Source: a virus (taxonomy: Duplodnaviria; Caudoviricetes). From it: DNA of 64,000 nt. The first letter of the stretch is position 1, and each line of letters opens with the position of its first letter. Location: IMG/VR virus record IMGVR_UViG_2834293421_000001, positions 10,290 through 74,289 of that record. The stretch is one strand, 5' to 3'. Below, piece after piece: positions 1,060 to 44,771 of this stretch. The translations under genes and the position numbers were made by a program. The notes beneath the pieces were generated by a model. That model did no database searches, had not been told where the DNA came from, and worked only from the letters and a program-made list of their open reading frames with translations.

Positions 1060-1152
1060 AGCTTACTTAAACTTAAGCAAAATTTAAGGAAATGTATGTA
1101 TAATGATTACTTGTACAATTTTAAGCATTAGAAATATGTGGAGGATGATAGT

Positions 1153-1410
1153 ATGAATGGCAAAACAAATAAAGGAATTATAAGAAATATAGACTCATTA
1201 GGAAGAGTTGTAATACCAAAAGAATTTAGAAAAATGTTAAATATAAAGGAAAATGAGCCTGTTGAAATAGTATGTGAAAATGGAGCTATTACAGTAAAAA
1301 AACATAATGATTCATGTATTTTATGTGGATCAAAAGAAGATTTAAAAAATGTAAAAAATATTTTAATATGTGAAAAATGTCTAGAGGAAATGAAAGATAT
1401 TATAAGTTAA
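1153..1410 (+). CDS. AbrB/SpoVT-family regulator with C-terminal Zn ribbon
   Basis: GIIRNIDSLGRVVIPKEFR; CILCG...CEKC; ATG at 1153 follows GGAGG. Confidence 0.9.
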   Translation: MNGKTNKGIIRNIDSLGRVVIPKEFRKMLNIKENEPVEIVCENGAITVKKHNDSCILCGSKEDLKNVKNILICEKCLEEMKDIIS

Positions 1411-1433: not shown

Positions 1434-1937
1434 ATGGAAAAAAAAGAACTATTTAAAAAGGTAGAAGGAAGATTACATAATTATAAGTTTTTAGAAGCTC
1501 AAATAAGTAATATAGAATTAGATATAAAGAAAGAAAAACTGGAATATAGAGGTTGTGGAGCCATAAGTTATGATGAACGAACAGGTGTAACCTATAATAT
1601 TTCTAGGATTGTTGAAAAAGAGGTTATAGCTAAAGAAAAGAAAATAGCTAAGTTGATGCAAAGTAAACTAGAAAAAGAAATTGAGAAAGAGAAGATAGAA
1701 AACTCATTAAGCTGCTTAGACCATAATGAAACTAATTTCTTTAAATTATTCTATAACAGTAAAAGTAAAAATAACATGAAGTATATAAGTATAAAATTGC
1801 ACATGGATCGCAGTCATTGCTATAAAATTAGAGAGAGATTAGTTTATAAAGTTATGGGGATGTTATATCCTAATTATGAAGAATTACCATTATTCAATGA
1901 ATATGATATGAAACCCAACACTTTCACTACATTTTAA
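1434..1937 (+). CDS. ArpU/RinA-like late transcription activator
   Basis: Last early gene before packaging module; C-terminal sigma-4-like HTH (ISIKLHMDRSHCYKIR). Confidence 0.75.
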   Translation: MEKKELFKKVEGRLHNYKFLEAQISNIELDIKKEKLEYRGCGAISYDERTGVTYNISRIVEKEVIAKEKKIAKLMQSKLEKEIEKEKIENSLSCLDHNETNFFKLFYNSKSKNNMKYISIKLHMDRSHCYKIRERLVYKVMGMLYPNYEELPLFNEYDMKPNTFTTF

Positions 1938-1985
1938 CTACAAAGTGAAGATTTTTTACAAATAAAAAGGTAGTAATATAGTAGT
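1915..1985 (+). promoter_or_regulatory. Late promoter with 11-bp periodic activator repeats
   Basis: CCAACA/ACTACA/ACTACA at 1915, 1926, 1937, then TAGTAATAT -10-like element; conserved in prophage 2. Confidence 0.55.
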
Positions 1986-1986
1986 A

Positions 1987-2270
1987 TAGGAAATTGAAGA
2001 TGCTATAATTTTTTATTCCCCAATACCCCTTTTTATATAATTGCTAGGGTATAATAATTATCCTAGCAACGTGAGGATATAGTTTAAAGGCAAAATATCT
2101 AATTTAGATGATAGAAGGTTCGATTCCTTTAATTCTCACCAATATAACTTTACGGCTCTTAAGAGCACTCTGTAGCGGTATGGAGTATAAACTACTTATA
2201 TTTATTAGTTAGTAACAACAACTTATCCGTTCAAAAAAGTCAGGACTTTCTCACCTGGCTTTTTTATTTT
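1987..2270 (+). ncRNA. Structured leader/ncRNA with tRNA-like domain (2073-2141)
   Basis: Hairpins, D-arm TAGTTTAAAGGCAAAA, T-arm GAAGG-TTCGATT-CCTTT, 3' ACCA, terminator; homologous copy at 41402-41690. Confidence 0.7.
2233..2270 (+). terminator. Intrinsic terminator ending the leader RNA
   Basis: AAAAAAGTCAGG-actttctca-CCTGGCTTTTTT. Confidence 0.75.
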
Positions 2271-2288: not shown

Positions 2289-2432
2289 ATGAAAAAGTGG
2301 AAAGATGCTGATGAAGTGATTAATATGGTACATGAGTTACCGAGTGAATTGAAAGATGTTGATAGGGAAATGAGTAAGAAACCTAATTTTGATAAAATTA
2401 AGAAAAAAGAAGGAAAACCTCGATTTAAGTAG
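2289..2432 (+). CDS. Small hypothetical protein (47 aa, MKKWKDADEV...)
   Basis: Open frame read manually; GGTGA RBS; below ORF-track cutoff. Confidence 0.55.
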   Translation: MKKWKDADEVINMVHELPSELKDVDREMSKKPNFDKIKKKEGKPRFK

Positions 2433-2461
2433 AATTATATACTTGAAAGCGAGGTGATATT

Positions 2462-3025
2462 ATGGAGTGGTATGATATGTCTGAATTGAAAAGTATAAGC
2501 TATACATGCGGATTTTGTAGTTGTATAGTAGGGAATGATAGAGGGTTTTATACTTCAAGTGATATTAGTAAATTTCATCATGTAGACAAAATATATGTAT
2601 GTCCAAAGTGTGGTAAACCAACTTTTTTTGATAAAGATGGGACTCAGTATCCAGGAGTGAAGTATGGAAGCCATGTAAATAGTATAAATAAAGAAGAAGT
2701 TGAATCTTTGTATAATGAAGCTAGAAGTTGCTTTAGTATAAATTCTTTTACTTCTGTGGCTCTATGTTGCAGGAAATTACTAATGAATATAGCTGTTGAT
2801 TTAGGAGCAGATGAAAATAAAAAATTTGCATACTATGTAAATTGGCTAGATGAAAATAATTATATACTTCCTAATGCTAAAGGATGGGTTGATCAAATAA
2901 GAAAAATTGGGAATGAAGCAACACATGAAATTCATATAATAAGCAGTGAGGATGCAGAAAAATCTTTGAAGTTTATAGAAATGATATTAAAACTTGTATA
3001 TGAGTTTCCAGCTATGGTTGAATAA
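2462..3025 (+). CDS. DUF4145-like HEPN-domain protein with N-terminal Zn ribbon
   Basis: CGFC...CPKC; YNEARSCF...CRKLL; RKIGNEATH motif. Confidence 0.8.
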   Translation: MEWYDMSELKSISYTCGFCSCIVGNDRGFYTSSDISKFHHVDKIYVCPKCGKPTFFDKDGTQYPGVKYGSHVNSINKEEVESLYNEARSCFSINSFTSVALCCRKLLMNIAVDLGADENKKFAYYVNWLDENNYILPNAKGWVDQIRKIGNEATHEIHIISSEDAEKSLKFIEMILKLVYEFPAMVE

Positions 3026-3100
3026 AAAGTATTATTATTTAGAACTCTCTTGTAGAGTTCTTTTTCATTTTCCAAAACGACGAATAAGTGAGGTGGTGAT

Positions 3101-3817
3101 GTGGCTCGTGTAAGAAGTCCGAATAGAGATAAAGCATATGAGATATATAAAGAACACAATGGAAATATTGATTTAGTTAAGATTGCTAGCATTTTAGGTA
3201 TATCACCAGGGACAGTTAGGGGATGGAAGAATAAAGATAGTTGGGAGTCTCAATTAAATAGAACGTTCCATAATAATAAAGAACGTTCTAAAAAGAAAAA
3301 AGGTGGTCAGCCAGGAAATAAGAATGCTACTGGGCCTCCAGGAAATAAAAATGCTGAAAAGTTTGGCTTTTTCTCTAAGTACTTACCAGAAGAAACTTTG
3401 GATTTAATGAAAGAAATATCAGAGAAAAACCAATTAGACATACTTTGGGAGCAAATAACAATTCAATATGCAGCAATAATAAGAGCTCAACGTATTATGT
3501 ATGTTGAGAAAAAAGATGAAATGATAAAGGAACTTAAGAAGGAAGAAACTAGCGAATATGGCCAAAAGATAGAATATGAGTTCCAGTTTGCTTGGGATAG
3601 ACAAGCAACATTCTTAAATGCTCAAAGTAGAGCTATGGGAGAATTAAGGAGTTTAATTAAACAATATGAGTCTATGGTTAATGCCAATTGGAATTTAATT
3701 ACAGAAGAACAAAAAGCTAGACTAGATCTTATAAAAGCTCAAACAAATAAACTTACTGGTGATAATCAAGAAATAGAAGATACTAGTGATATAGAGAGTG
3801 AAATATATGGCAATTAA
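3101..3817 (+). CDS. Terminase small subunit
   Basis: N-terminal HTH (TVRGWKNKDSW), GGQPGNKNA repeat motif; upstream of TerL. Confidence 0.9.
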   Translation: MARVRSPNRDKAYEIYKEHNGNIDLVKIASILGISPGTVRGWKNKDSWESQLNRTFHNNKERSKKKKGGQPGNKNATGPPGNKNAEKFGFFSKYLPEETLDLMKEISEKNQLDILWEQITIQYAAIIRAQRIMYVEKKDEMIKELKKEETSEYGQKIEYEFQFAWDRQATFLNAQSRAMGELRSLIKQYESMVNANWNLITEEQKARLDLIKAQTNKLTGDNQEIEDTSDIESEIYGN

Positions 3818-5144
3818 GAAAAAGAAAACTATTAAATTTAATTTCTCAGAAAAGCATAAAGATTATATAAGAGCCTGTGCGAATAATACATATAATTTTG
3901 CAGAAGGAGCCGTAAGAGCTGGTAAAACCGTAGACAATGTATTTGCTTTTGCACATGAGTTAAAGAATACGCAGGATAGAATTCATTTAGCTACTGGATC
4001 AACAAGTGCAAATGCTAAGTTAAATATAGGTGATGCTAATGGATTTGGACTAGAGTATATATTTAGAGGTCAAAGTCATTGGGGAAAGTTTAAAGGCAAT
4101 GAATGTCTTTATATTAAAGGTCCAGGAACAAATAATAAACAAAAAATAGTTATATTTGCTGGTGGGGCAAAGGCTGATAGTTATAAAAAGATAAGGGGTA
4201 ACTCTTATGGAATGTGGATAGCAACTGAAATAAATTTACATCATGATAATACTATTAAAGAAGTATTCAACAGAACTATAGCTGCTAAGAAAAGAAAGAT
4301 ATTTTGGGACCTTAACCCTGATAATCCAAATGCACCTATATATAAAGAGTATATAGATAACTATAAGAAAAAGTATGAAGAAGGAACTTTAAAAGGTGGA
4401 TATAATTATCAACATTTTACTATAGATGATAATATTAATATTCCAGATGAAAGAAAAGAAGAGATTAAAAGTCAGTATGATAAAACATCTATATGGTATC
4501 AAAGAGACATATTAGGCAAAAGATGTATTGCAGAAGGTCTTATATATAGACAGTTTGCTAATGATACAAAGAAATATATTATCTCTAATAGAGAAATTGC
4601 CAATTTAATTAAGATTACAATAGCTGTAGACTTTGGAGGTAATAAGTCAGGTCATGCATTTGTAGCAACTGGTATTACTGCTGGATATAAAGAATTAATA
4701 ACATTAGCAAGTGAACGACACTTTGGTGATGATATAGATCCTGAAAAACTAGGTGAACTTTTTACTAACTTTGTAAAGAAAATAAATCATAAATATGGCT
4801 TTGCAGAAGTAGCTTATTGTGATAGTGCAGAGCAAGTTCTAATAAGAGGTTTAAGAAATGCAGCTATAAAAGAAGGATTAAATATAAGAGTTGCTGATGC
4901 ATGGAAAACTAGTGTTAATGACAGGATAAATGCTACTACAAAGTTAATAGCTCAAGGTAGGTTTAAGTATACTGAAGATTGTGAAACGCTTAAAGATGCT
5001 TTATGTTCAGCTATATGGAATCCGAAGGAACTTAAAAATGAAAGGCTAGACGATGGTACATCTGATATAGATACTCTAGATGCTTTTGAATATAGTTTTG
5101 AAAGAGATATAAGACGTTTATTAGATGTATTTATACAAAGGTAA
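3798..5144 (+). CDS. Terminase large subunit, PBSX family
   Basis: EGAVRAGKT Walker A, NPDNP, VDFG, YCDSA, D-x-LDA nuclease motifs. Confidence 0.95.
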   Translation: MKYMAIKKKKTIKFNFSEKHKDYIRACANNTYNFAEGAVRAGKTVDNVFAFAHELKNTQDRIHLATGSTSANAKLNIGDANGFGLEYIFRGQSHWGKFKGNECLYIKGPGTNNKQKIVIFAGGAKADSYKKIRGNSYGMWIATEINLHHDNTIKEVFNRTIAAKKRKIFWDLNPDNPNAPIYKEYIDNYKKKYEEGTLKGGYNYQHFTIDDNINIPDERKEEIKSQYDKTSIWYQRDILGKRCIAEGLIYRQFANDTKKYIISNREIANLIKITIAVDFGGNKSGHAFVATGITAGYKELITLASERHFGDDIDPEKLGELFTNFVKKINHKYGFAEVAYCDSAEQVLIRGLRNAAIKEGLNIRVADAWKTSVNDRINATTKLIAQGRFKYTEDCETLKDALCSAIWNPKELKNERLDDGTSDIDTLDAFEYSFERDIRRLLDVFIQR

Positions 5145-29684: not shown

Positions 29685-30497
29685 ATGAATTACAAATATC
29701 TTATATCCAATAAAAGGTCAGTAAGGAAATTTAAAAATCAAGAAATAAAAAAATCAGATTTCAGAATAATAGAAGAATATATAAATATGTCTAAAAAACT
29801 TGTACCAGAAATAAGGACTGAAATTAAAGTTTTTAATAAAGATAAATTGTATCCAAAACTTGATAAAATAGCAGGATATAATGGACATATGATAGAAGCA
29901 CCAAACTATGTAATCATTTTATCTGATACAGATAAAGGATACATAGAAAATTCAGGATATATAGGAGAAAACTTAACTCTAAAGGCCATGGACTTAGGAA
30001 TCGACTCATGTTGGGTTACCTTTAAAGAGAGTTCGCTTATAAAAGAAAAGCTTGAAATTTTATCAGATAAGGAAGTTACAGCAATTATTGCACTAGGTTA
30101 TGGAGATACTGTAAAAACTAAATCAGCTACTGGTGATTCATCTAGATTAGGTGTAGAAAAGATAGTTTATATAGATAAATGGGGAGAAAATGCAACCATA
30201 GAATTATTAGAAGAAAGAGGATTATTAGATGCATTTAGTTTTGCTAGAATGGCACCATCTACATTAAATAGACAACCTTGGAGATTTATAATTGATGGAG
30301 GCAAAGTGATTCTTGCAGTAAGAAAAGATGAATTTGCAAGTGAGTATGAAGGTAAAGTTGATGTAGGGATAGTTATGCTATACTTTTCATTAATAATTGA
30401 TACAACTATGTTTGATTTAAAATGGACTTTAGAAAACGGTAATAGAAATTATGACGTACCAACAGATTATGAAATAATAGGATATTGTAATATATAA
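29685..30497 (+). CDS. Nitroreductase family protein (host)
   Basis: KRSVRKF, LGIDSCW, APSTLNRQPWRF. Confidence 0.9.
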   Translation: MNYKYLISNKRSVRKFKNQEIKKSDFRIIEEYINMSKKLVPEIRTEIKVFNKDKLYPKLDKIAGYNGHMIEAPNYVIILSDTDKGYIENSGYIGENLTLKAMDLGIDSCWVTFKESSLIKEKLEILSDKEVTAIIALGYGDTVKTKSATGDSSRLGVEKIVYIDKWGENATIELLEERGLLDAFSFARMAPSTLNRQPWRFIIDGGKVILAVRKDEFASEYEGKVDVGIVMLYFSLIIDTTMFDLKWTLENGNRNYDVPTDYEIIGYCNI

Positions 30498-30550
30498 AAA
30501 ATAACTGAGCTCAAGCCTGTTTATAATAAACTTGAACTCAGTTATTTTGT
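30497..30550. terminator. Bidirectional terminator
   Basis: AAAATAACTGAG...CTCAGTTATTTT. Confidence 0.7.
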
Positions 30551-30564
30551 TTTTATATTAAATT

Positions 30565-31368
30565 TTATCTTTTACTTTTATAAATTTTTTCTGCTATATT
30601 TAAAAATTGATACATAATTAAAGCACAAAGGGCTAATACTATTACTCCCATCATTACTAAATCTAATTTGAAAACTTGGCCACCATAAACTATTAAGTAC
30701 CCAAGTCCATATCTAGATACTAAGAATTCACCTACTATTACGCCAACCCAAGCCATACCTATATTAATTTTAGTTAAATTTATTAAATTTCCTATGTTAG
30801 AAGGAAATATTAATTTTGTAAGAATTTGAAGTTTTGATGCTCCAAAACTTTTAAGCATTTTGACTTTTTCCTCATCAACACTTATAAAATAATTATAGGC
30901 GGATAATATAGTAACAACAACAGATATAGTAATAGCTATAACTATTATTCCATTTACACCAGCTCCAGCCCAAACTATTAAAATTGGTGCTAATGCTGTT
31001 TTAGGAAGTGCATTTAGTACAACCAAAAATGGATCAAGTATTTTAGATAATCTTTCTGACCACCAAAGCATTATAGCTACTAATATTCCAAGAATTGTAC
31101 CAACTGCTAATCCAACTATTGTCTCATAGCTAGATATTAATATATGCTTAAATAATTCTCCATTTTGAATATATTTTATAAAAAGATTGTAAATATCACT
31201 AGGTTTGCTAAATAGAAATACATCTATTATATTAAGTCTAGCAAGTAATTCCCAAAGAGCTATAAATCCAACCAATATAAATATTTGATAAAAAAAGATT
31301 AGATTCTTTTCTTTTTTTAGCGATTTTAAATATTGTTTATGACCTTGTGATACATTATTTTGTTTCAC
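30565..31368 (-). CDS. ABC transporter permease (YtlD/SsuC-like, host)
   Basis: LPKTALAP, EAA-like loop, GEFL...GLGY; GTG start 31368 after AAGGAG. Confidence 0.9.
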   Translation of the reverse strand: MKQNNVSQGHKQYLKSLKKEKNLIFFYQIFILVGFIALWELLARLNIIDVFLFSKPSDIYNLFIKYIQNGELFKHILISSYETIVGLAVGTILGILVAIMLWWSERLSKILDPFLVVLNALPKTALAPILIVWAGAGVNGIIVIAITISVVVTILSAYNYFISVDEEKVKMLKSFGASKLQILTKLIFPSNIGNLINLTKINIGMAWVGVIVGEFLVSRYGLGYLIVYGGQVFKLDLVMMGVIVLALCALIMYQFLNIAEKIYKSKR

Positions 31369-31548
31369 TAGAATCAATCTCCTTCCACAAGATATTAAAA
31401 TAGTCTTTAAAATTTTCAGCACTTCTTGATATTATAGGAGTTCTAGTTTCTGATATTTTTAAATCTATAGTATAGATACTTTTTATAGATGCAGGACGTT
31501 TGGATAAAACTGCGACCTTATCTGACATAGAAATAGCTTCAGATAAAT
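31355..31548 (-). pseudogene. 3' part of ABC ATPase (YtlC/SsuB-like), interrupted by prophage 2
   Basis: Manual translation SEAISMSDKVAVLSKRPASIK...YFNILWKEIDSSETK*, the post-H-loop tail of NitT/TauT ATPases; frame loses similarity upstream. Confidence 0.85.
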
Positions 31549-31578
31549 GTATTAAAGTTCCTATTTATCTGAAGCTAT
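31533..31578. other. att junction region of prophage 2 with perfect 16-bp inverted repeat
   Basis: ATAGCTTCAGATAAAT (31533-48), 14-bp spacer, ATTTATCTGAAGCTAT (31563-78). Confidence 0.7.
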
Positions 31579-33153
31579 AGTATTGCTTGGATTGATACCT
31601 ATTAGGTTTACTTTTATTGTGTCTGTATCAGAGTCCCATGTCATGTAATCTACTACTGTAGATAGTAACAGTCTCTTCTTATTAATATCAGAGGTATCAA
31701 TTTCTTTATTAAATTTATTTAAATTATCTATAAGCATATTTATATTAATATCAACTTGCTTATTTTCCATAGACATAGTATTTAAAGATTCTAATTGTGA
31801 TTTTAAATTAGATAAGTCATTATTTAAAGATTCTAACTTATTGATTATAAAAGTAGATGCAGAGCTTTCGGTAACCTTGGCTAATTGCATAACTAAATTA
31901 TCAATGTATGTTTCTTTTTCTTTAATTTGATTATTTATTGAGTTTATCTCAGTTTTTATATTTTTAATATTCTTAGAGTTTTCTAACTTGCTATCTTTAT
32001 AACTTGACATTATAGATTTAATACTTTTATTTTTTAATTCATCTATAACTTTAGACTCAGCCTTATCAGATCTGATATTTTTACAATCACAAGCTGATAC
32101 TCCTAAAGATTTCTTTGTTCCACATATGTAATAATAGATAGTGCCGCTTTTAGAGTTTTTATAAGTAATTCTCATATTAGAGCTACACTTAGAACATTTT
32201 AAAAGACCTGATAATAATGCCTTACTTCCAGTTCCAGCTCTAGGAGCTTTAGCCTTATTTGCATTAAGTAGCCTTTGTGCTTCAATCCATTTATCAGAAT
32301 CTATAACACCTTTATGTTTAGCAACAGCAGCTATAGGACTATCTGTATTTTTAGCATAAGTTAGGATACCATGTATATTGTCTATATCTCCCATAACATC
32401 TATATTAGACTTTCTTAGATAATCAACTACACTTTTATCAGCTTTAACATATGCTGGATTTTTTAGGATTAAAGATAAGGCACTAGGATCAAGGTTACCT
32501 CCACGAGTTCCTTTAATTCCATTCTCATACATATATTTATAAAGTTTTGAAAGTGATCTAAGCTCTAAATATTTATCAAATATCAATTTAACAATTTCTA
32601 TTGTATCTTCATCAACTTTAAGTTTATACATTTTTCTTTGGTTCATATTTTCATCATAGTAGTTAATTTGAGTACTAATAAAACCATATGGAGGCATACC
32701 TCCTAGCCATCTTCCTGTTCTAGCTAACTCATACATGTTATCTCTAACACGCTCAGCTATAGTTTCTCGTTCTAACTGAGCAAATACAGATGATATATAC
32801 ATCATAGCACGTCCCATAGGAGTACTAGTATCAAATTGTTCTTTAATTGATACGAAAGATATATTAAGCTTATTTAGATCTTCTATAAGAGTAGAGAAGT
32901 CAGAAACATTACGGGATATTCTATCTAATCTATAACATATTAAATAATCAAATTTTTTATCTTTAGCATCTTTAAGCATTTCTTTAAACTTTGGTCTATC
33001 CATAGATTTACCAGAGAAACCTTCATCTTCATATACTAAAAATTCATTAATTCCTATGTTCTTAGCATAGTCCATGCAAAGCTGTATTTGGTTTTCTATA
33101 GATTCACCCTTTCCTGTGAACTTTGATTTTCTTGAGTATATAGCAGCAACCAT
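31561..33153 (-). CDS. Large serine recombinase (integrase)
   Basis: YSRKS catalytic Ser, DEGFSG, YRLDRISR, recombinase domain, CSKC...YYYIC Zn ribbon, coiled coil. Confidence 0.96.
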   Translation of the reverse strand: MVAAIYSRKSKFTGKGESIENQIQLCMDYAKNIGINEFLVYEDEGFSGKSMDRPKFKEMLKDAKDKKFDYLICYRLDRISRNVSDFSTLIEDLNKLNISFVSIKEQFDTSTPMGRAMMYISSVFAQLERETIAERVRDNMYELARTGRWLGGMPPYGFISTQINYYDENMNQRKMYKLKVDEDTIEIVKLIFDKYLELRSLSKLYKYMYENGIKGTRGGNLDPSALSLILKNPAYVKADKSVVDYLRKSNIDVMGDIDNIHGILTYAKNTDSPIAAVAKHKGVIDSDKWIEAQRLLNANKAKAPRAGTGSKALLSGLLKCSKCSSNMRITYKNSKSGTIYYYICGTKKSLGVSACDCKNIRSDKAESKVIDELKNKSIKSIMSSYKDSKLENSKNIKNIKTEINSINNQIKEKETYIDNLVMQLAKVTESSASTFIINKLESLNNDLSNLKSQLESLNTMSMENKQVDININMLIDNLNKFNKEIDTSDINKKRLLLSTVVDYMTWDSDTDTIKVNLIGINPSNTIASDK

Positions 33154-40848: not shown

Positions 40849-41352
40849 ATGGATAAAAAAGAATTATTTAAAAAAGTAGAATTAAGATTGCATAATTATA
40901 AGTTTCTAGAAGCTCAAATAAATAATATAGAATTAGATATAAAGAAAGAGAAAATGAGATATAGAGGTTGTGGAGCTATAAATTATGGTGAAAGAACAAG
41001 TGAAACTTATAATATTTCTAGAATTGTTGAAAAAGAGGTTATAGATAAAGAGAAGAAAATAGATAAATTGATGCAAAGTAAATTAGAAAAAGAAATAGAG
41101 AAAGCGAAAATAGAAAACTCATTAAGTTGCTTAGATGTTAATGAAACTAATTTCTTTGAATTATTTTATAATAGCAAAAATAAAAATAATATGAAATATA
41201 TAAGCCTTAAGCTACACATGGATCGCAGTCATTGCTACACAGTAAGAGAGCGATTAGTTTATAAAATTATGGGTATGTTGTATCCAAACTATGAAGAACT
41301 ACCATTATTTAATGAAAATAATAGCAAAGCCAACACTTTGGCTACATTTTAG
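40849..41352 (+). CDS. ArpU/RinA-like late transcription activator
   Basis: Close paralogue of 1434..1937, same length. Confidence 0.75.
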   Translation: MDKKELFKKVELRLHNYKFLEAQINNIELDIKKEKMRYRGCGAINYGERTSETYNISRIVEKEVIDKEKKIDKLMQSKLEKEIEKAKIENSLSCLDVNETNFFELFYNSKNKNNMKYISLKLHMDRSHCYTVRERLVYKIMGMLYPNYEELPLFNENNSKANTLATF

Positions 41353-41401
41353 CGACAAAGTAAAGATTTTTTATACATTCAGAGGTGGTAATATAGTAGT
41401 A

Positions 41402-41690
41402 TAGGAAATTTAAGATAACTCAATTGCTTATTTCCTAATAACTCCCTCTTTATATAATGGCTAGGGTATAAATTTACCCTAGCAACGTGAGGATATAGTT
41501 TAATGGTAAAATAGCTATTTAGAAGATAAGAGGTTCGATTCCTTTTAACCCTCACCAATATAACTTTACGGCTCTTAAGAGCACTCTGTAGCGGTATGGA
41601 GTATAAACTAGTTACATTTATTAGATTTATTAGCAACAACTTATTATGTTCAAAAAAGTCAGGACTTTCTCACCTGGCTTTTTTATTTTA
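41402..41690 (+). ncRNA. Structured leader/ncRNA with tRNA-like domain (41489-41557)
   Basis: TAGTTTAATGGTAAAA D-arm, AGAGG-TTCGATT-CCTTT T-arm, ACCA end; same hairpins and terminator as copy 1. Confidence 0.7.
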
Positions 41691-41800: not shown

Positions 41801-42001
41801 ATGAGGAAGTGTTTAAGATGCAATGAAACTATGGTTGAAGACTACATGCTAAAAACTGAAAACTTTACAGCTCAAGCATCAGTAGTATTAGGAAAAGGAA
41901 GTGGGGTTTTTTCATCAAATAAAGGAAAGATAAAGGCTGCAGTATGCCCAAATTGTGGAGAAATTTCAATATTTTTTGATAAGCTAGATAAAATTAAATA
42001 G
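41801..42001 (+). CDS. Small Zn-ribbon protein
   Basis: CLRC...CPNCG; GGGGGAG RBS; terminator at ~42032. Confidence 0.75.
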   Translation: MRKCLRCNETMVEDYMLKTENFTAQASVVLGKGSGVFSSNKGKIKAAVCPNCGEISIFFDKLDKIK

Positions 42002-42097
42002 TGTATTCATATTAAAAGTATATGAATTTAAAGTGGACAATTAGGGTCCATTTTTTTTTATAGGTTTGTATTCAAATCAGATTTGAGGTGGTGAGAT

Positions 42098-42646
42098 ATG
42101 AACTATGTAGAACCTATTAGAAATTTAGATACATTAGAAAATATGTGCTCCTATTTAAAAAAGACAAATGAAAGAGACTACCTTCTATTTATGATGGGTA
42201 TATATACAGGTCCTAGAGTATCAGATATATTAAAGTTTAGAATATATGATGTAAAAGATAAAAGGCAAATAGTCTTAAGAGAAAAGAAAACAGGGAAACA
42301 AAAATTCATAGAGATAAACCCAATACTGAAAAGAGCAATTAAAGATTATGTAGAGGACAAGGATCCTGATGATTTTTTAATTAAATCACGTAAAAACTAC
42401 AATAGACCTATATCTAGAGAAAGAGCATATGTGATTTTAAAAGAGTTGGGAGAATTATTTGATGTTCCTTGTTTAGGAACCCATAGTATGAGAAAAACAT
42501 GGGGATACCATTACTATAAACAAACTAAAGATATAGCATTACTTCAGAAGATATTTAACCATTCATCTCCAGCTGTAACCTTACATTATATAGGTATAGA
42601 CCAAGACAGAATGAATAAAGCTTATACTAGCTTTAGATATTTTTAA
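42098..42646 (+). CDS. Stand-alone tyrosine recombinase (catalytic domain only)
   Basis: TGPRVSD, EKKT, HSMRK, NHSS, catalytic Y in LHYIG. Confidence 0.9.
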   Translation: MNYVEPIRNLDTLENMCSYLKKTNERDYLLFMMGIYTGPRVSDILKFRIYDVKDKRQIVLREKKTGKQKFIEINPILKRAIKDYVEDKDPDDFLIKSRKNYNRPISRERAYVILKELGELFDVPCLGTHSMRKTWGYHYYKQTKDIALLQKIFNHSSPAVTLHYIGIDQDRMNKAYTSFRYF

Positions 42647-42855
42647 TTTAATTTTATCTAGAATATAACATAAAAAGAGAATGTTATATTGGTTTATTTT
42701 ATTTAGAAAAAATAACGATTGAAATCATTGGAAATACTAAGTCTACAGTGGGTATATAAGTTGATAAAATGTATATAACACACTATTAGATATGTTATGT
42801 TCATAAGGTAGGGTTTATAAATAACTTGAAAGTATGATAAATTATAGAAAAATTT

Positions 42856-42885
42856 GTATATTACTAAAGCTTAAGGGAAATTATA
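42856..42885 (+). promoter_or_regulatory. sigmaF/sigmaG-like promoter of Mn catalase
   Basis: GTATA-15-GGAAATTATA. Confidence 0.45.
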
Positions 42886-42916
42886 ATTACTAATTATAAT
42901 TTTGGAGGTATAGCTG

Positions 42917-43597
42917 ATGTTTAAACACGATAAAAAATTGTTTAGAGAAGTAAAAGTAGAAAGACCAAACCCTCAATATGCAGTTTTAATGCAAGAACAA
43001 TTAGGAGGGGCAAATGGAGAGCTAAAAGCAGCAATGCAATATTTATCTCAAAGTTTTAGAATAAAAGATAAAGAGATAAAAGATTTATTTCTAGATATAG
43101 CAGCGGAAGAACTTAGCCATATGGAAATGGTTGCTCAAACAATAAATTTATTAAATGGACATGATGTTGACTACCAAGCAGTTGATTCTGGAGAAATAGA
43201 AACTCATGTACTAAGTGGATTATCACCATTTTTAATAAACTCTTCAGGAGCACCTTGGACTGCTGATTATGTTACTGTAACAGGAGACTTAGTTGCAGAT
43301 CTATTATCAAATATAGCATCAGAGCAAAGAGCAAAAGTTGTATATGAATACTTATATAGACAAATTGAAGATAAATACGTAAGAGAAACAATAGACTTCT
43401 TACTTAACAGAGAAGAAGCTCATAATGCTTTATTTAGAGAGGCATTAAATAAGATTAAAGATACAGGTTCAAATAGAGATTTTGGAGTTACTGAAGACTC
43501 TAAATTATACTTTGACTTATCTAGTCCGGGACCTAACAATCATAATACAAAGATGGATATTAACCCACCTTCTTTCAATGAACCAATAAAAAAATAG
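42917..43597 (+). CDS. Manganese catalase family protein
   Basis: GGANGELKAAMQY, EELSHME, REEAH. Confidence 0.93.
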   Translation: MFKHDKKLFREVKVERPNPQYAVLMQEQLGGANGELKAAMQYLSQSFRIKDKEIKDLFLDIAAEELSHMEMVAQTINLLNGHDVDYQAVDSGEIETHVLSGLSPFLINSSGAPWTADYVTVTGDLVADLLSNIASEQRAKVVYEYLYRQIEDKYVRETIDFLLNREEAHNALFREALNKIKDTGSNRDFGVTEDSKLYFDLSSPGPNNHNTKMDINPPSFNEPIKK

Positions 43598-44315: not shown

Positions 44316-44771
44316 ATGGCTAGACCTAGGCAACCTGTTTCTCTACTTCAAGCTAAAGGCAAAAAACATTTAACAAAAGCTGAAATAGAAGAAAGAAAAT
44401 CTCAAGAACTAAAAGTTAATTCAGATAATGTTAAAGCTCCTGTTTTTCTTAATGAAAGTTTAGTTGATGAATTTAATAAGTTTGTACAAGAAATGAATAG
44501 ATTTGAAATTTTAGATAACACAGACTCGGATGCAGTAGGAAGATATACTTACTACAAAAATGAATTTGCTAGAATTGCTAAAAAGCTTTCTAAAACAGGT
44601 CCAGATAATAAAAAATATGATGATTATCTAAAAAAGCTAAGTAATATAAGTAAAGAAATAAATATTTTAGAAGTAAGATTTGGTATTACACCTGGGAATA
44701 GATGCAAATTAGTTATCCCTACTCAAAAAGAAGATAAACCTCCAAATAAATTTTCTAAATTTATGAAATAA
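44316..44771 (+). CDS. Terminase small subunit, P27 family
   Basis: MARPRQP, GITPxxR motif. Confidence 0.88.
   Translation: MARPRQPVSLLQAKGKKHLTKAEIEERKSQELKVNSDNVKAPVFLNESLVDEFNKFVQEMNRFEILDNTDSDAVGRYTYYKNEFARIAKKLSKTGPDNKKYDDYLKKLSNISKEINILEVRFGITPGNRCKLVIPTQKEDKPPNKFSKFMK

Follow-up and report, generated by a model that had tools for sequence, protein, structure and literature searches.

Two 69-nt elements, one in each of two prophages within a 64,000-nt stretch of viral DNA (the window, analysed at its full length), can be traced securely by sequence comparison to a phage tRNA-Glu(UUC) gene, and comparison of the loci places this gene at one fixed leader site between a RinA-like activator gene and the packaging genes. 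Neither copy can decode, because the anticodon loop is deleted, by 6 nt in copy 1 and by all 7 nt in copy 2. We propose that the tRNA-Glu derivative, though unable to decode, may persist as a handle through which RNase P and 3'-end processing act on a conserved leader RNA, a reading to which we give a probability of somewhat under one half (roughly 0.45) and which we hold more firmly for copy 1, since copy 2 looks partly eroded.

Two tRNA-like elements without an anticodon loop

The elements and the genes around them are as follows.

1434..1937, + strand: late-activator gene of prophage 1, 167 aa, RinA/ArpU-superfamily-like (phrog_36, E 2.6e-27)
2073..2141, + strand: copy 1, the 'type 1' tRNA-Glu-derived element (RF00005, 42 bits; ends ACCA)
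2289..2432, + strand: first ORF after the leader, 47 aa (from the ORF list)
3101..5144, + strand: small and large terminase genes of prophage 1 (PF10668, E 2.2e-15; PF03237, PF04466)
40849..41352, + strand: late-activator gene of prophage 2 (phrog_36, E 1.1e-24)
41489..41557, + strand: copy 2, the 'type 2' element, with no anticodon loop (RF00005, 32.7 bits; ends ACCA)

The two prophages are distinct, with a portal of the SPP1 type in prophage 1 versus a portal and capsid of the HK97 type in prophage 2. Prophage 1 has, at 3.1-25.3 kb, a small terminase of the PF10668 type, the large terminase, its portal, a tape-measure protein and an amidase. Prophage 2 begins with a serine recombinase gene (31561-33153) and has small and large terminases that differ from those of prophage 1, and host-like nitroreductase and ABC-permease genes lie between the two prophages at 29.7-31.4 kb. 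In both, the element stands directly after the late-activator gene, as the first-pass annotation had stated. For that gene, which it described as ArpU-like, RinA/ArpU-superfamily-like is the better name; the prophage 1 protein has a weak match of 14.3 bits to ArpU. This protein also scores 27.7 bits against TIGR01636 (RinA), under the cutoff of 31.9, and matches no Pfam family at E 0.01; the annotation of phrog_36 is 'transcriptional regulator'. The two activator genes are identical at 439/504 nt (87%). The 47-aa ORF found no family match in the Pfam and PHROG searches, and several relatives have a similar MKKWKDA... start.

The letters of both elements agree with the earlier description. A search of the whole window against Rfam at gathering scores returned two matches in total, both to the tRNA family RF00005 and both above its gathering cutoff of 29 bits: 2073-2138 in copy 1 (42.0 bits, E 1.6e-5) and 41489-41553 in copy 2 (32.7 bits, E 0.0057). 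Local searches with the same model gave E 1e-7 for copy 1 and 3.5e-5 for copy 2, and for the elements no Rfam family other than tRNA reached threshold, the best other match having E 0.34. In the RF00005 alignments the acceptor, the D arm with its GG and the T arm (GGUUCGAUUCC) are in register in both copies. In copy 1, six of the seven anticodon-loop positions are absent between the strands of an intact 5-bp stem (UCUAA/UUAGA), and in copy 2 nine central positions of the model are reduced to 2 nt, so that the arm reads GCTAT followed directly by TTAGA and has no anticodon loop. The canonical anticodon arm of a 5-bp stem and a 7-nt loop is thus lacking from both. ARAGORN, for which a pseudo or undetermined call had been anticipated, called no tRNA gene and no tmRNA in the whole window.

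These results bear out the tRNA hallmarks that had been claimed for both elements, and also the claim that they are tRNA-like and non-decoding. A chance resemblance to tRNA is excluded by the Rfam scores and by the existence of homologous real tRNAs, and a decoding tRNA with an odd arm is excluded by a loop of only 0-3 nt. A tRNA half left by integration can likewise be rejected, since both elements sit inside their prophages and no other T-arm copy occurs in the window: the T-arm pattern has six matches in the window and is exact in the two elements only.

Pairing in copy 1 extends to 6/7 positions of the acceptor (with an A7.A66 mismatch and one G.U) and to 5/5 of the T stem. Copy 2 has 5/7 acceptor pairs (mismatches A5.C68 and A7.A66) and 5/5 in the T stem, with a single additional T where the T stem passes into the acceptor strand. 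The substitutions in the T stem preserve pairing, as had been noted, with GAAGG in one copy and AGAGG in the other each fitting CCTTT. The elbow is present in both (G18 G19 in the D loop, TTCGATT as the T loop), and the D stem pairs in 100% of cells in an alignment of the element family. Both copies also have T at position -1, G1-C72 and a 3' ACCA, and their acceptor and T arm form a stack of 6+5 bp in copy 1 and 5+5 bp in copy 2 (4+7 in the minimum-energy fold); the sequence features of an RNase P-type tRNA-like element (stack, U-1, G1-C72, RCCA) are therefore found in each. The claim that the anticodon region is the most variable part did not survive the comparison of the copies, as the 3' acceptor strand (8/10 identical) and the remnant of the anticodon arm (13/16) are equally variable.

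A conserved leader around the element

The leaders of the two prophages share one order of parts. A promoter-like site is followed by hairpin 1, an AATA-CCCC-TATAAT block, hairpin 2, ACGT and the element, and 3' of the element come a two-hairpin trailer, a spacer and a terminator-like hairpin with a T-tract, the last ending ~20 nt before the first ORF.

1955..1982, + strand: putative promoter P1 of prophage 1, TTTACA-16-TATAGT (10/12 in a consensus scan; presumed function)
1989..2019, + strand: hairpin 1 (in the minimum-energy and centroid folds of 1988-2275)
2036..2041, + strand: 'box A', TATAAT (read from the sequence)
2041..2069, + strand: hairpin 2 of prophage 1, TTGCTAGG...CCTAGCAA, then CGT before G1 (in the fold of 1988-2275)
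2155..2192, + strand: trailer, consisting of hairpin GCTCTT/AAGAGC, hairpin ACTCTGTA-GCGG-TATGGAGT and ATAAAC (both hairpins in the fold)
2233..2269, + strand: terminator-like hairpin of prophage 1 (A-tract, GTCAGG, 9-nt loop, CCTGGC, T-tract)
41370..41397, + strand: putative promoter P1 of prophage 2, TTTATA-16-TATAGT (9/12 in the consensus scan)
41460..41483, + strand: hairpin 2 of prophage 2, GCTAGGGTA...TACCCTAGC (from the sequence and from co-variation with copy 1 and relatives)
41583..41608, + strand: trailer hairpin motif of prophage 2 (pattern match; identical to copy 1)
41652..41688, + strand: terminator-like hairpin of prophage 2 (identical to copy 1)

The leader as a whole (1988-2275) folds better than shuffled versions of itself (z -2.81). 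The number of promoter-consensus sites in the region is not above that in shuffles; at P1, a GGTGnTAATATAGTAGTATAGG block is conserved across loci. The site of hairpin 1 has a different sequence in relatives and is there also able to form a hairpin, and the arms of hairpin 2 co-vary among relatives (GCTAGGGTA/TACCCTAGC, ACCAGGG/CCCTGGT, CCAGGTA/TACCTGG). Box A, which was not reported by the promoter scan because it has no -35 match, is a possible second promoter for the tRNA module, and together with the AATA-CCCC block it is kept in all relatives that bear the module. The best-conserved parts of the leader between the two copies are the trailer, with 54/55 positions identical over 2142-2196, and the terminator, with 38/38. 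The terminator hairpin is a 12-bp stem in both the minimum-energy and the centroid fold, and the terminator scan missed it because the scan admits loops of 3-8 nt and the loop here has 9 nt. A T-box-like pairing of the ACCA end with the trailer was considered and rejected, as co-variation between the discriminator (A, T or G) and the motif is not seen.

RNA-library contigs from four runs cover the element, two of the runs having type 1 and the other two the 73-nt type; being contigs, they show presence and not transcript ends. In one run, a contig reaching from the element to the terminator (2062-2243) has a depth of 72.6 versus 17.6 for the upstream contig, a difference that shared repeats may inflate, and in another run a single contig spans gene and element. 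The contig starts at 2062-2065 were rejected as a transcription start: they fall in the hairpin-2 palindrome and at unitig overlaps and are therefore probably assembly breaks. Parts of 2305-3056 have no RNA-contig cover, which is uninformative.

A position of the element at the head of the late transcript is plausible, although a predicted intrinsic terminator lies between it and the first late ORF. One reading of the element is a 5' cap for the late mRNA. RNase P would cut at G1, the CCA would block RNase Z, as an encoded CCA does in Bacillus, and on read-through of the terminator the paired body would stay at the 5' end and shield the late transcript from 5'-to-3' exonuclease. We consider this very improbable. 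The element does precede the late genes, the collapsed forms still have CCA, and read-through would be needed anyway, since the first late ORF follows so shortly after the terminator; against this, a strong and fully conserved terminator and ~90 nt of trailer stand between the element and the ORFs, and the forms without CCA would be cut off.

Homologous leaders and the tRNA-Glu gene

A protein-guided scan yielded 34 viral loci, and the element is present in 29 of them, as the 73/74-nt form (19 loci), as the copy 1 type (six), as the copy 2 type (three) or in decayed form (one). The 73/74-nt form is 4-5 nt longer than copy 2; the 73-nt version, the commoner of the two, and copy 2 differ by 4 nt. 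Searching with the trailer motif turned up 43 viral, 5 genome and 7 metagenome stretches, and also 6/112 Peptostreptococcaceae genomes, in collections that appear to be without public C. difficile genomes. The named genomes with the motif are Paraclostridium, Romboutsia and an Anaerovoracaceae MAG, and activator homologues in named C. difficile phages are 50-59% identical. The hosts of the temperate phages with this leader are Peptostreptococcaceae.

Other searches added little. Comparison of 1940-2280 by blastn with a phage collection that may omit near relatives gave no match, and a scan of viral contigs with the collapsed anticodon region returned the known type-1 loci and unrelated coding matches only. 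A pattern of D arm and T arm matched more than 115 viral contigs and was too unspecific, because such a D arm is common in AT-rich phage tRNAs. We found no description of this element in the literature covered, outside of which lie the supplements of C. difficile transcriptome studies; a passage in one preprint mentions a single prophage sRNA, without details (10.1101/2020.08.10.244764).

At the element's site in 15 loci, ARAGORN called tRNA-Glu(ttc) in ten and 'tRNA-Ser(tga)' in one, gave an undetermined tRNA with a 6-nt loop in two and called nothing in two, where a 75-nt insert replaces the arm. The counterparts in relatives lie between hairpin 2 with its ACGT and the trailer motif and have alignable sequence, and alleles A, C, D and E have (A/T)(C)(G/A)T directly before G1. 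Counted as distinct tRNA-body sequences, there are 30 variants. Apart from those with a 7-nt loop, they comprise two with a 6-nt loop, four with the 6-nt loss of the copy 1 type (the metagenomic locus L085 included), nine of the 73/74-nt type, which is 3 nt short, two of the copy 2 type, short by a further 4 nt, and two insert forms (46 or 75 nt), for which the tRNA model still gives 42 bits. The elements are not a mimic that arose de novo, as tRNA-Glu(UUC) is intact at the same site in relatives.

The first-pass annotation had reasoned that a normal 7-nt loop in most homologues would mark the two elements as decaying tRNA genes. This came out in part: 11/30 variants have a 7-nt loop, nine with UUC and two with another triplet (UGA, UGG). 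The elements may be neutral relics of a phage tRNA-Glu(UUC) gene, in decay since its inactivation. Such a relic would persist only through its position in a conserved, recombining leader, where selection would act on the promoter region, trailer hairpins and terminator. We regard this as the main rival reading and give it a substantial share of our credence, below that of the processing handle. Gene loss is the simplest history, because a UUC tRNA survives in nine of the 30 variants. Between the copies, trailer and terminator are identical to 98-100%, and the folding energies of the elements are ordinary when set against shuffles (z -0.34 for copy 1, -1.37 for copy 2), the minimum-energy fold of copy 1 not being the cloverleaf. 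Moreover, two leaders (L064 and L083) have kept trailer and terminator and have no tRNA module, which makes the module dispensable.

What speaks against neutral decay is the distribution of the damage. The anticodon arm is lesioned in 21/30 variants through at least four separate events, which include a 1-nt loss, the triplets UGA and UGG, losses of 3, 6 and 7 nt and the inserts of 46 and 75 nt, whereas the D-loop GG and the TTCRAnn T loop are kept in all 30. The non-decoding allele-A forms and the insert forms retain acceptor pairing of 7/7 and T-stem pairing of 5/5, and of the 15 collapsed variants 14 still end in ACCA and all 15 have the elbow nucleotides, so that the claim that elbow and CCA are kept holds, for the elbow in the relatives and for CCA in the collapsed forms. 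In an alignment of 27 sequences, 91.8% of cells pair on the cloverleaf versus 43-60% with slid partners, and the T stem co-varies (CG/GU/AU/UA; GC/AU).

The locus L085 is informative in this respect. It has the exact collapsed arm of copy 1 in a leader resembling the one in Paraclostridium tenue, where the tRNA-Glu is intact, and its element scores 47 bits on RF00005. It differs at 11 positions from a type-1 element (L005), and each of the five stem changes among these maintains or improves pairing, one change being double (A50-U64 to U50-A64) and the others leading from G49.U65 to A-U, from G4.U69 to G-C and from G10.U25 to G-C. Copy 1 has two further differences from L005, in the D loop.

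Polymorphism within the leaders points the same way. Across 21 leaders of the 73/74-nt type, 9/73 sites are variable in the element versus 43/144 in the two adjacent spacers (p = 0.004), and across eight type-1 leaders 3/69 versus 19/137 (p = 0.053), the spacers used as baseline being mosaic, which may inflate their diversity. Third codon positions were unusable as a neutral baseline in the 73/74-nt group: they varied less than the first and second positions, which points to mosaic upstream genes. In a truly decayed prophage (L035), where the activator gene and hairpin 2 are broken, the motif has decayed and the terminator is destroyed, the damage to the element does reach invariant positions, with 2 nt missing from the acceptor strand and G18 changed.

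The copy 2 lineage (11 variants) fits a relic better. Its acceptor has 4-5/7 pairs, with A5.C68, and there are one or two extra T. By reading of the sequences, pairs or the CCA are broken by ~3-4 substitutions in stems or in the CCA (T6 to C or G, T63 to C, C74 to T) and two improve pairing, so that pairs are broken about as often as improved; one loop site varies between T, C and A. In one collapsed variant TCA replaces CCA, and the A7.A66 mismatch is common to all 15. Lesions are also not confined to the anticodon arm, since UUC allele B has a T stem of 3/5 pairs. Between copy 1 and copy 2, 60/68 positions of the element are identical (with 2 gaps), not significantly more than the 136/168 at third codon positions in the activator gene (p = 0.25). 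The claim that the element is under selection is thus favoured by the clustering of lesions in one arm, the pair-keeping changes in L085 and the low polymorphism relative to spacers, and it stays unproven in the face of the p = 0.25 comparison and of an acceptor stem that is eroding in copy 2.

Further evidence against a relic comes from minihelices, which suggest selection for the upper half of the tRNA. Seven distinct relatives have only an acceptor/T-arm minihelix at the element's site (GCAAGT, a 9-nt bulge, TGTTGG-TGCAACT-CCAACA, ACTTGC). Hairpins 1 and 2 recur in phiC2 and phiCD505, in the leader that follows the homologous activator gene, and after them come two tRNA-like pieces, the second of which starts with a hairpin with a D-loop-like CTTGGTAA loop, followed by ACCAT and a minihelix (GCARGT, bulge, TCTARG-TTCGATT-CYTRGA, ACYTGC), with the terminator next; in phiCD27 a minihelix piece of the phiC2 type lies further downstream. 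A scan for this type matched 101 viral stretches, 80 of which were returned as loci, giving 44 distinct sequences in which 99% of cells pair versus 37-55% with slid partners and in which one pair splits into AU (25) and GC (17). U(-1) and G1-C72 are present in every module class, and the insert and minihelix forms have no encoded CCA.

Possible roles of the module and comparison with known systems

For the processing handle that we favour, the parts needed would be those that the tRNA body has kept, namely the acceptor/T-arm stack, the elbow of D and T loops, U at -1, G1-C72 and the encoded ACCA. The element would be transcribed within a leader RNA of ~200-280 nt, starting at P1 and/or box A and ending at the intrinsic terminator. 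RNase P would then cut between T2072 and G2073 in copy 1, and between T41488 and G41489 in copy 2, and trimming of the 3' side would stop at the encoded CCA. In this way the 5' leader would be parted from the highly conserved trailer, and each of the two would have a defined end.

A broader idea, which we think doubtful, is that the late leaders of temperate phages of the C. difficile group need a 'body-only' tRNA mimic that works through the tRNA-handling machinery of the host. On this reading a complete tRNA-Glu, an anticodon-less tRNA, a tRNA with an insert of 46-75 nt and a bare minihelix are alternative occupants of one slot, and the anticodon would have been lost repeatedly because decoding is useless or costly. 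The module could gate or time late expression via RNase P or via CCA-dependent processing, or it could act as a decoy for defences that attack the elbow or the CCA tail of tRNAs.

A decoy or sponge would be a processed, uncharged, anticodon-less body that absorbs factors of the host or of a rival prophage which recognise the elbow or the CCA end; candidate targets are nucleases or transferases that act on tRNA tails. An anticodon nuclease as the target is excluded by the missing loop. The near-constant ACCA and the universal elbow of the collapsed variants would suit such a role, as would an anticodon that is dispensable or drifts to UGA and UGG, and tRNA-attacking immune systems, as well as phage tRNAs acting against them, are reported in print (PMC10264068, PMC11555353, PMC12851939), tRNA-tail cleavage being the subject of the last. 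We nevertheless judge it unlikely: no target factor was identified in the window or the loci, nothing indicates an abundance above that of host tRNAs, and CCA is not encoded in the insert and minihelix forms.

Should the body prove to be kept for its shape, the element would be a clear case in a bacterial virus of a tRNA gene converted to an RNA signal that does not decode, the stages of which (full tRNA, loop-less tRNA, minihelix) can still be seen side by side in related phages. Late-gene control by phages in an important gut-pathogen lineage would then be linked to the tRNA-processing enzymes of the host, and it would be a caution that prophage genes called 'pseudo-tRNA' may include functional elements. 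In the case of mere decay, the element is a useful marker of a mosaic leader module and suggests repeated gain and loss of one tRNA-Glu gene in these phages.

The closest known counterparts are the phage tRNA-Glu(UUC) genes, to whose ARAGORN-called alleles the element is homologous by sequence and position. It is AT-rich like them and shares the D-loop GG, the TTCGAnn T loop and the encoded CCA; unlike them it has no 7-nt anticodon loop and has an imperfect acceptor (6/7 and 5/7). Among RNAs that RNase P treats as tRNA-like are the tRNA-like domain of tmRNA and the precursors of the C4 RNA of phages P1 and P7 and of the CI RNA of P4, and the 'tRNA punctuation' of mitochondria is tRNA-like RNase P processing too. 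The element resembles such substrates in its acceptor/T-arm stack, U(-1), G1-C72 and RCCA within a longer predicted transcript, and an acceptor/T-arm minihelix in that relatives reduce the module to just this, but it has no sequence or Rfam relation to tmRNA or the other families and derives from a complete tRNA gene. Armless mitochondrial tRNAs have lost the D or T arm and kept the anticodon. Like these, the element is truncated and keeps part of the L shape; unlike them, it keeps the D and T arms and loses the anticodon. Phage tRNAs reported to escape anticodon nucleases (PMC10264068) likewise concentrate change in the anticodon loop and keep the body, yet those tRNAs still decode, whereas removal or replacement of the loop in the present element ends decoding.

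Trailer hairpins and terminator of the late leaders

The most conserved part of the leader, the non-coding stretch between the late-activator gene and the packaging genes, comprises the trailer hairpins with their motif ACTCTGTAGnGGTAnnGAGTATAAAC and the terminator, conserved at 98-100% between the two copies in the window. Both are present also in related leaders that lack any tRNA module (L064 and L083). Possible roles are those of a signal for processive antitermination or attenuation, of a small RNA, or of a site for the activator.

Window 2155-2269 and 41571-41688: trailer hairpins and terminator
Window 1138-1410, + strand: 90-aa gene directly 5' of the activator, matching phage 'antitoxin' families (phrog_4681, E 1.7e-24)
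L035 2990-3600: decayed prophage remnant

In the L035 remnant the activator gene is broken and hairpin 2, the trailer motif and the terminator are degraded; the tRNA-like element has an acceptor strand short by 2 nt and has lost G18.

Altered anticodon arms and separate tRNA-like pieces

Two otherwise intact tRNAs of allele A, one of the alleles of the module, carry the anticodon loops TTTGAAT (UGA, in L069) and TTTGGAT (UGG, in L209) as opposed to CTTTCAT (UUC); the triplet drifts while the tRNA body is still fully paired. Elsewhere the anticodon arm is replaced altogether, by inserts of 75 nt in L028/L029/L066/L084 and 46 nt in L090, whose first ~20 nt are common and only two substitutions apart; the acceptor stems of these bodies are perfect and the 3' end is CTA, not CCA. 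The inserts are below the size of a group I intron.

The late leaders of phiC2-like Clostridioides difficile phages contain, in order, a hairpin whose CTTGGTAA loop resembles a D loop, ACCAT, an acceptor/T-arm minihelix whose loop is TTCGATT, and a terminator. Across an alignment of 44 distinct sequences (A2), 99% of cells are paired and one pair co-varies; the piece had no match among Rfam families.

phiC2 (L092) 4073-4150 and phiCD505 (L094) 2194-2267: minihelix piece
phiC2 3935-3987 and phiCD505 2034-2086: second possible three-way tRNA-like piece

The second, putative piece lies in these leaders as well and reads, in order, GAACA, a small hairpin GCGT-GAGG-ACGC, GTTAG-TTCAATT-CTAAC and TGTTC.

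Cargo genes 3' of the leaders

Window 2462-3025, + strand: 187-aa gene, second after leader 1 (DUF4145, PF13643, E 3e-12; phrog_1305)
Window 41801-43597, + strand: morons after leader 2, whose products are a zinc-ribbon protein (66 aa), a short tyrosine recombinase (182 aa) and a Mn-catalase-like protein

The moron set 3' of leader 2 differs from that of leader 1, and all three of its genes lie upstream of terS at 44316. The region 3' of the leader terminator looks like a hot spot of cargo exchange. Host-like nitroreductase and ABC-permease genes part the two prophages, and the first gene of prophage 2, on the minus strand, encodes a serine recombinase of 530 aa (both within window 29685-33153).

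The 187-aa gene is a moron of prophage 1, placed between the late leader and terS. Its product carries an N-terminal zinc ribbon and the DUF4145 domain, which is the domain arrangement of RAZR, a portal-sensing HEPN RNase of anti-phage defence that cuts mRNA, tRNA and rRNA (PMC13017515).
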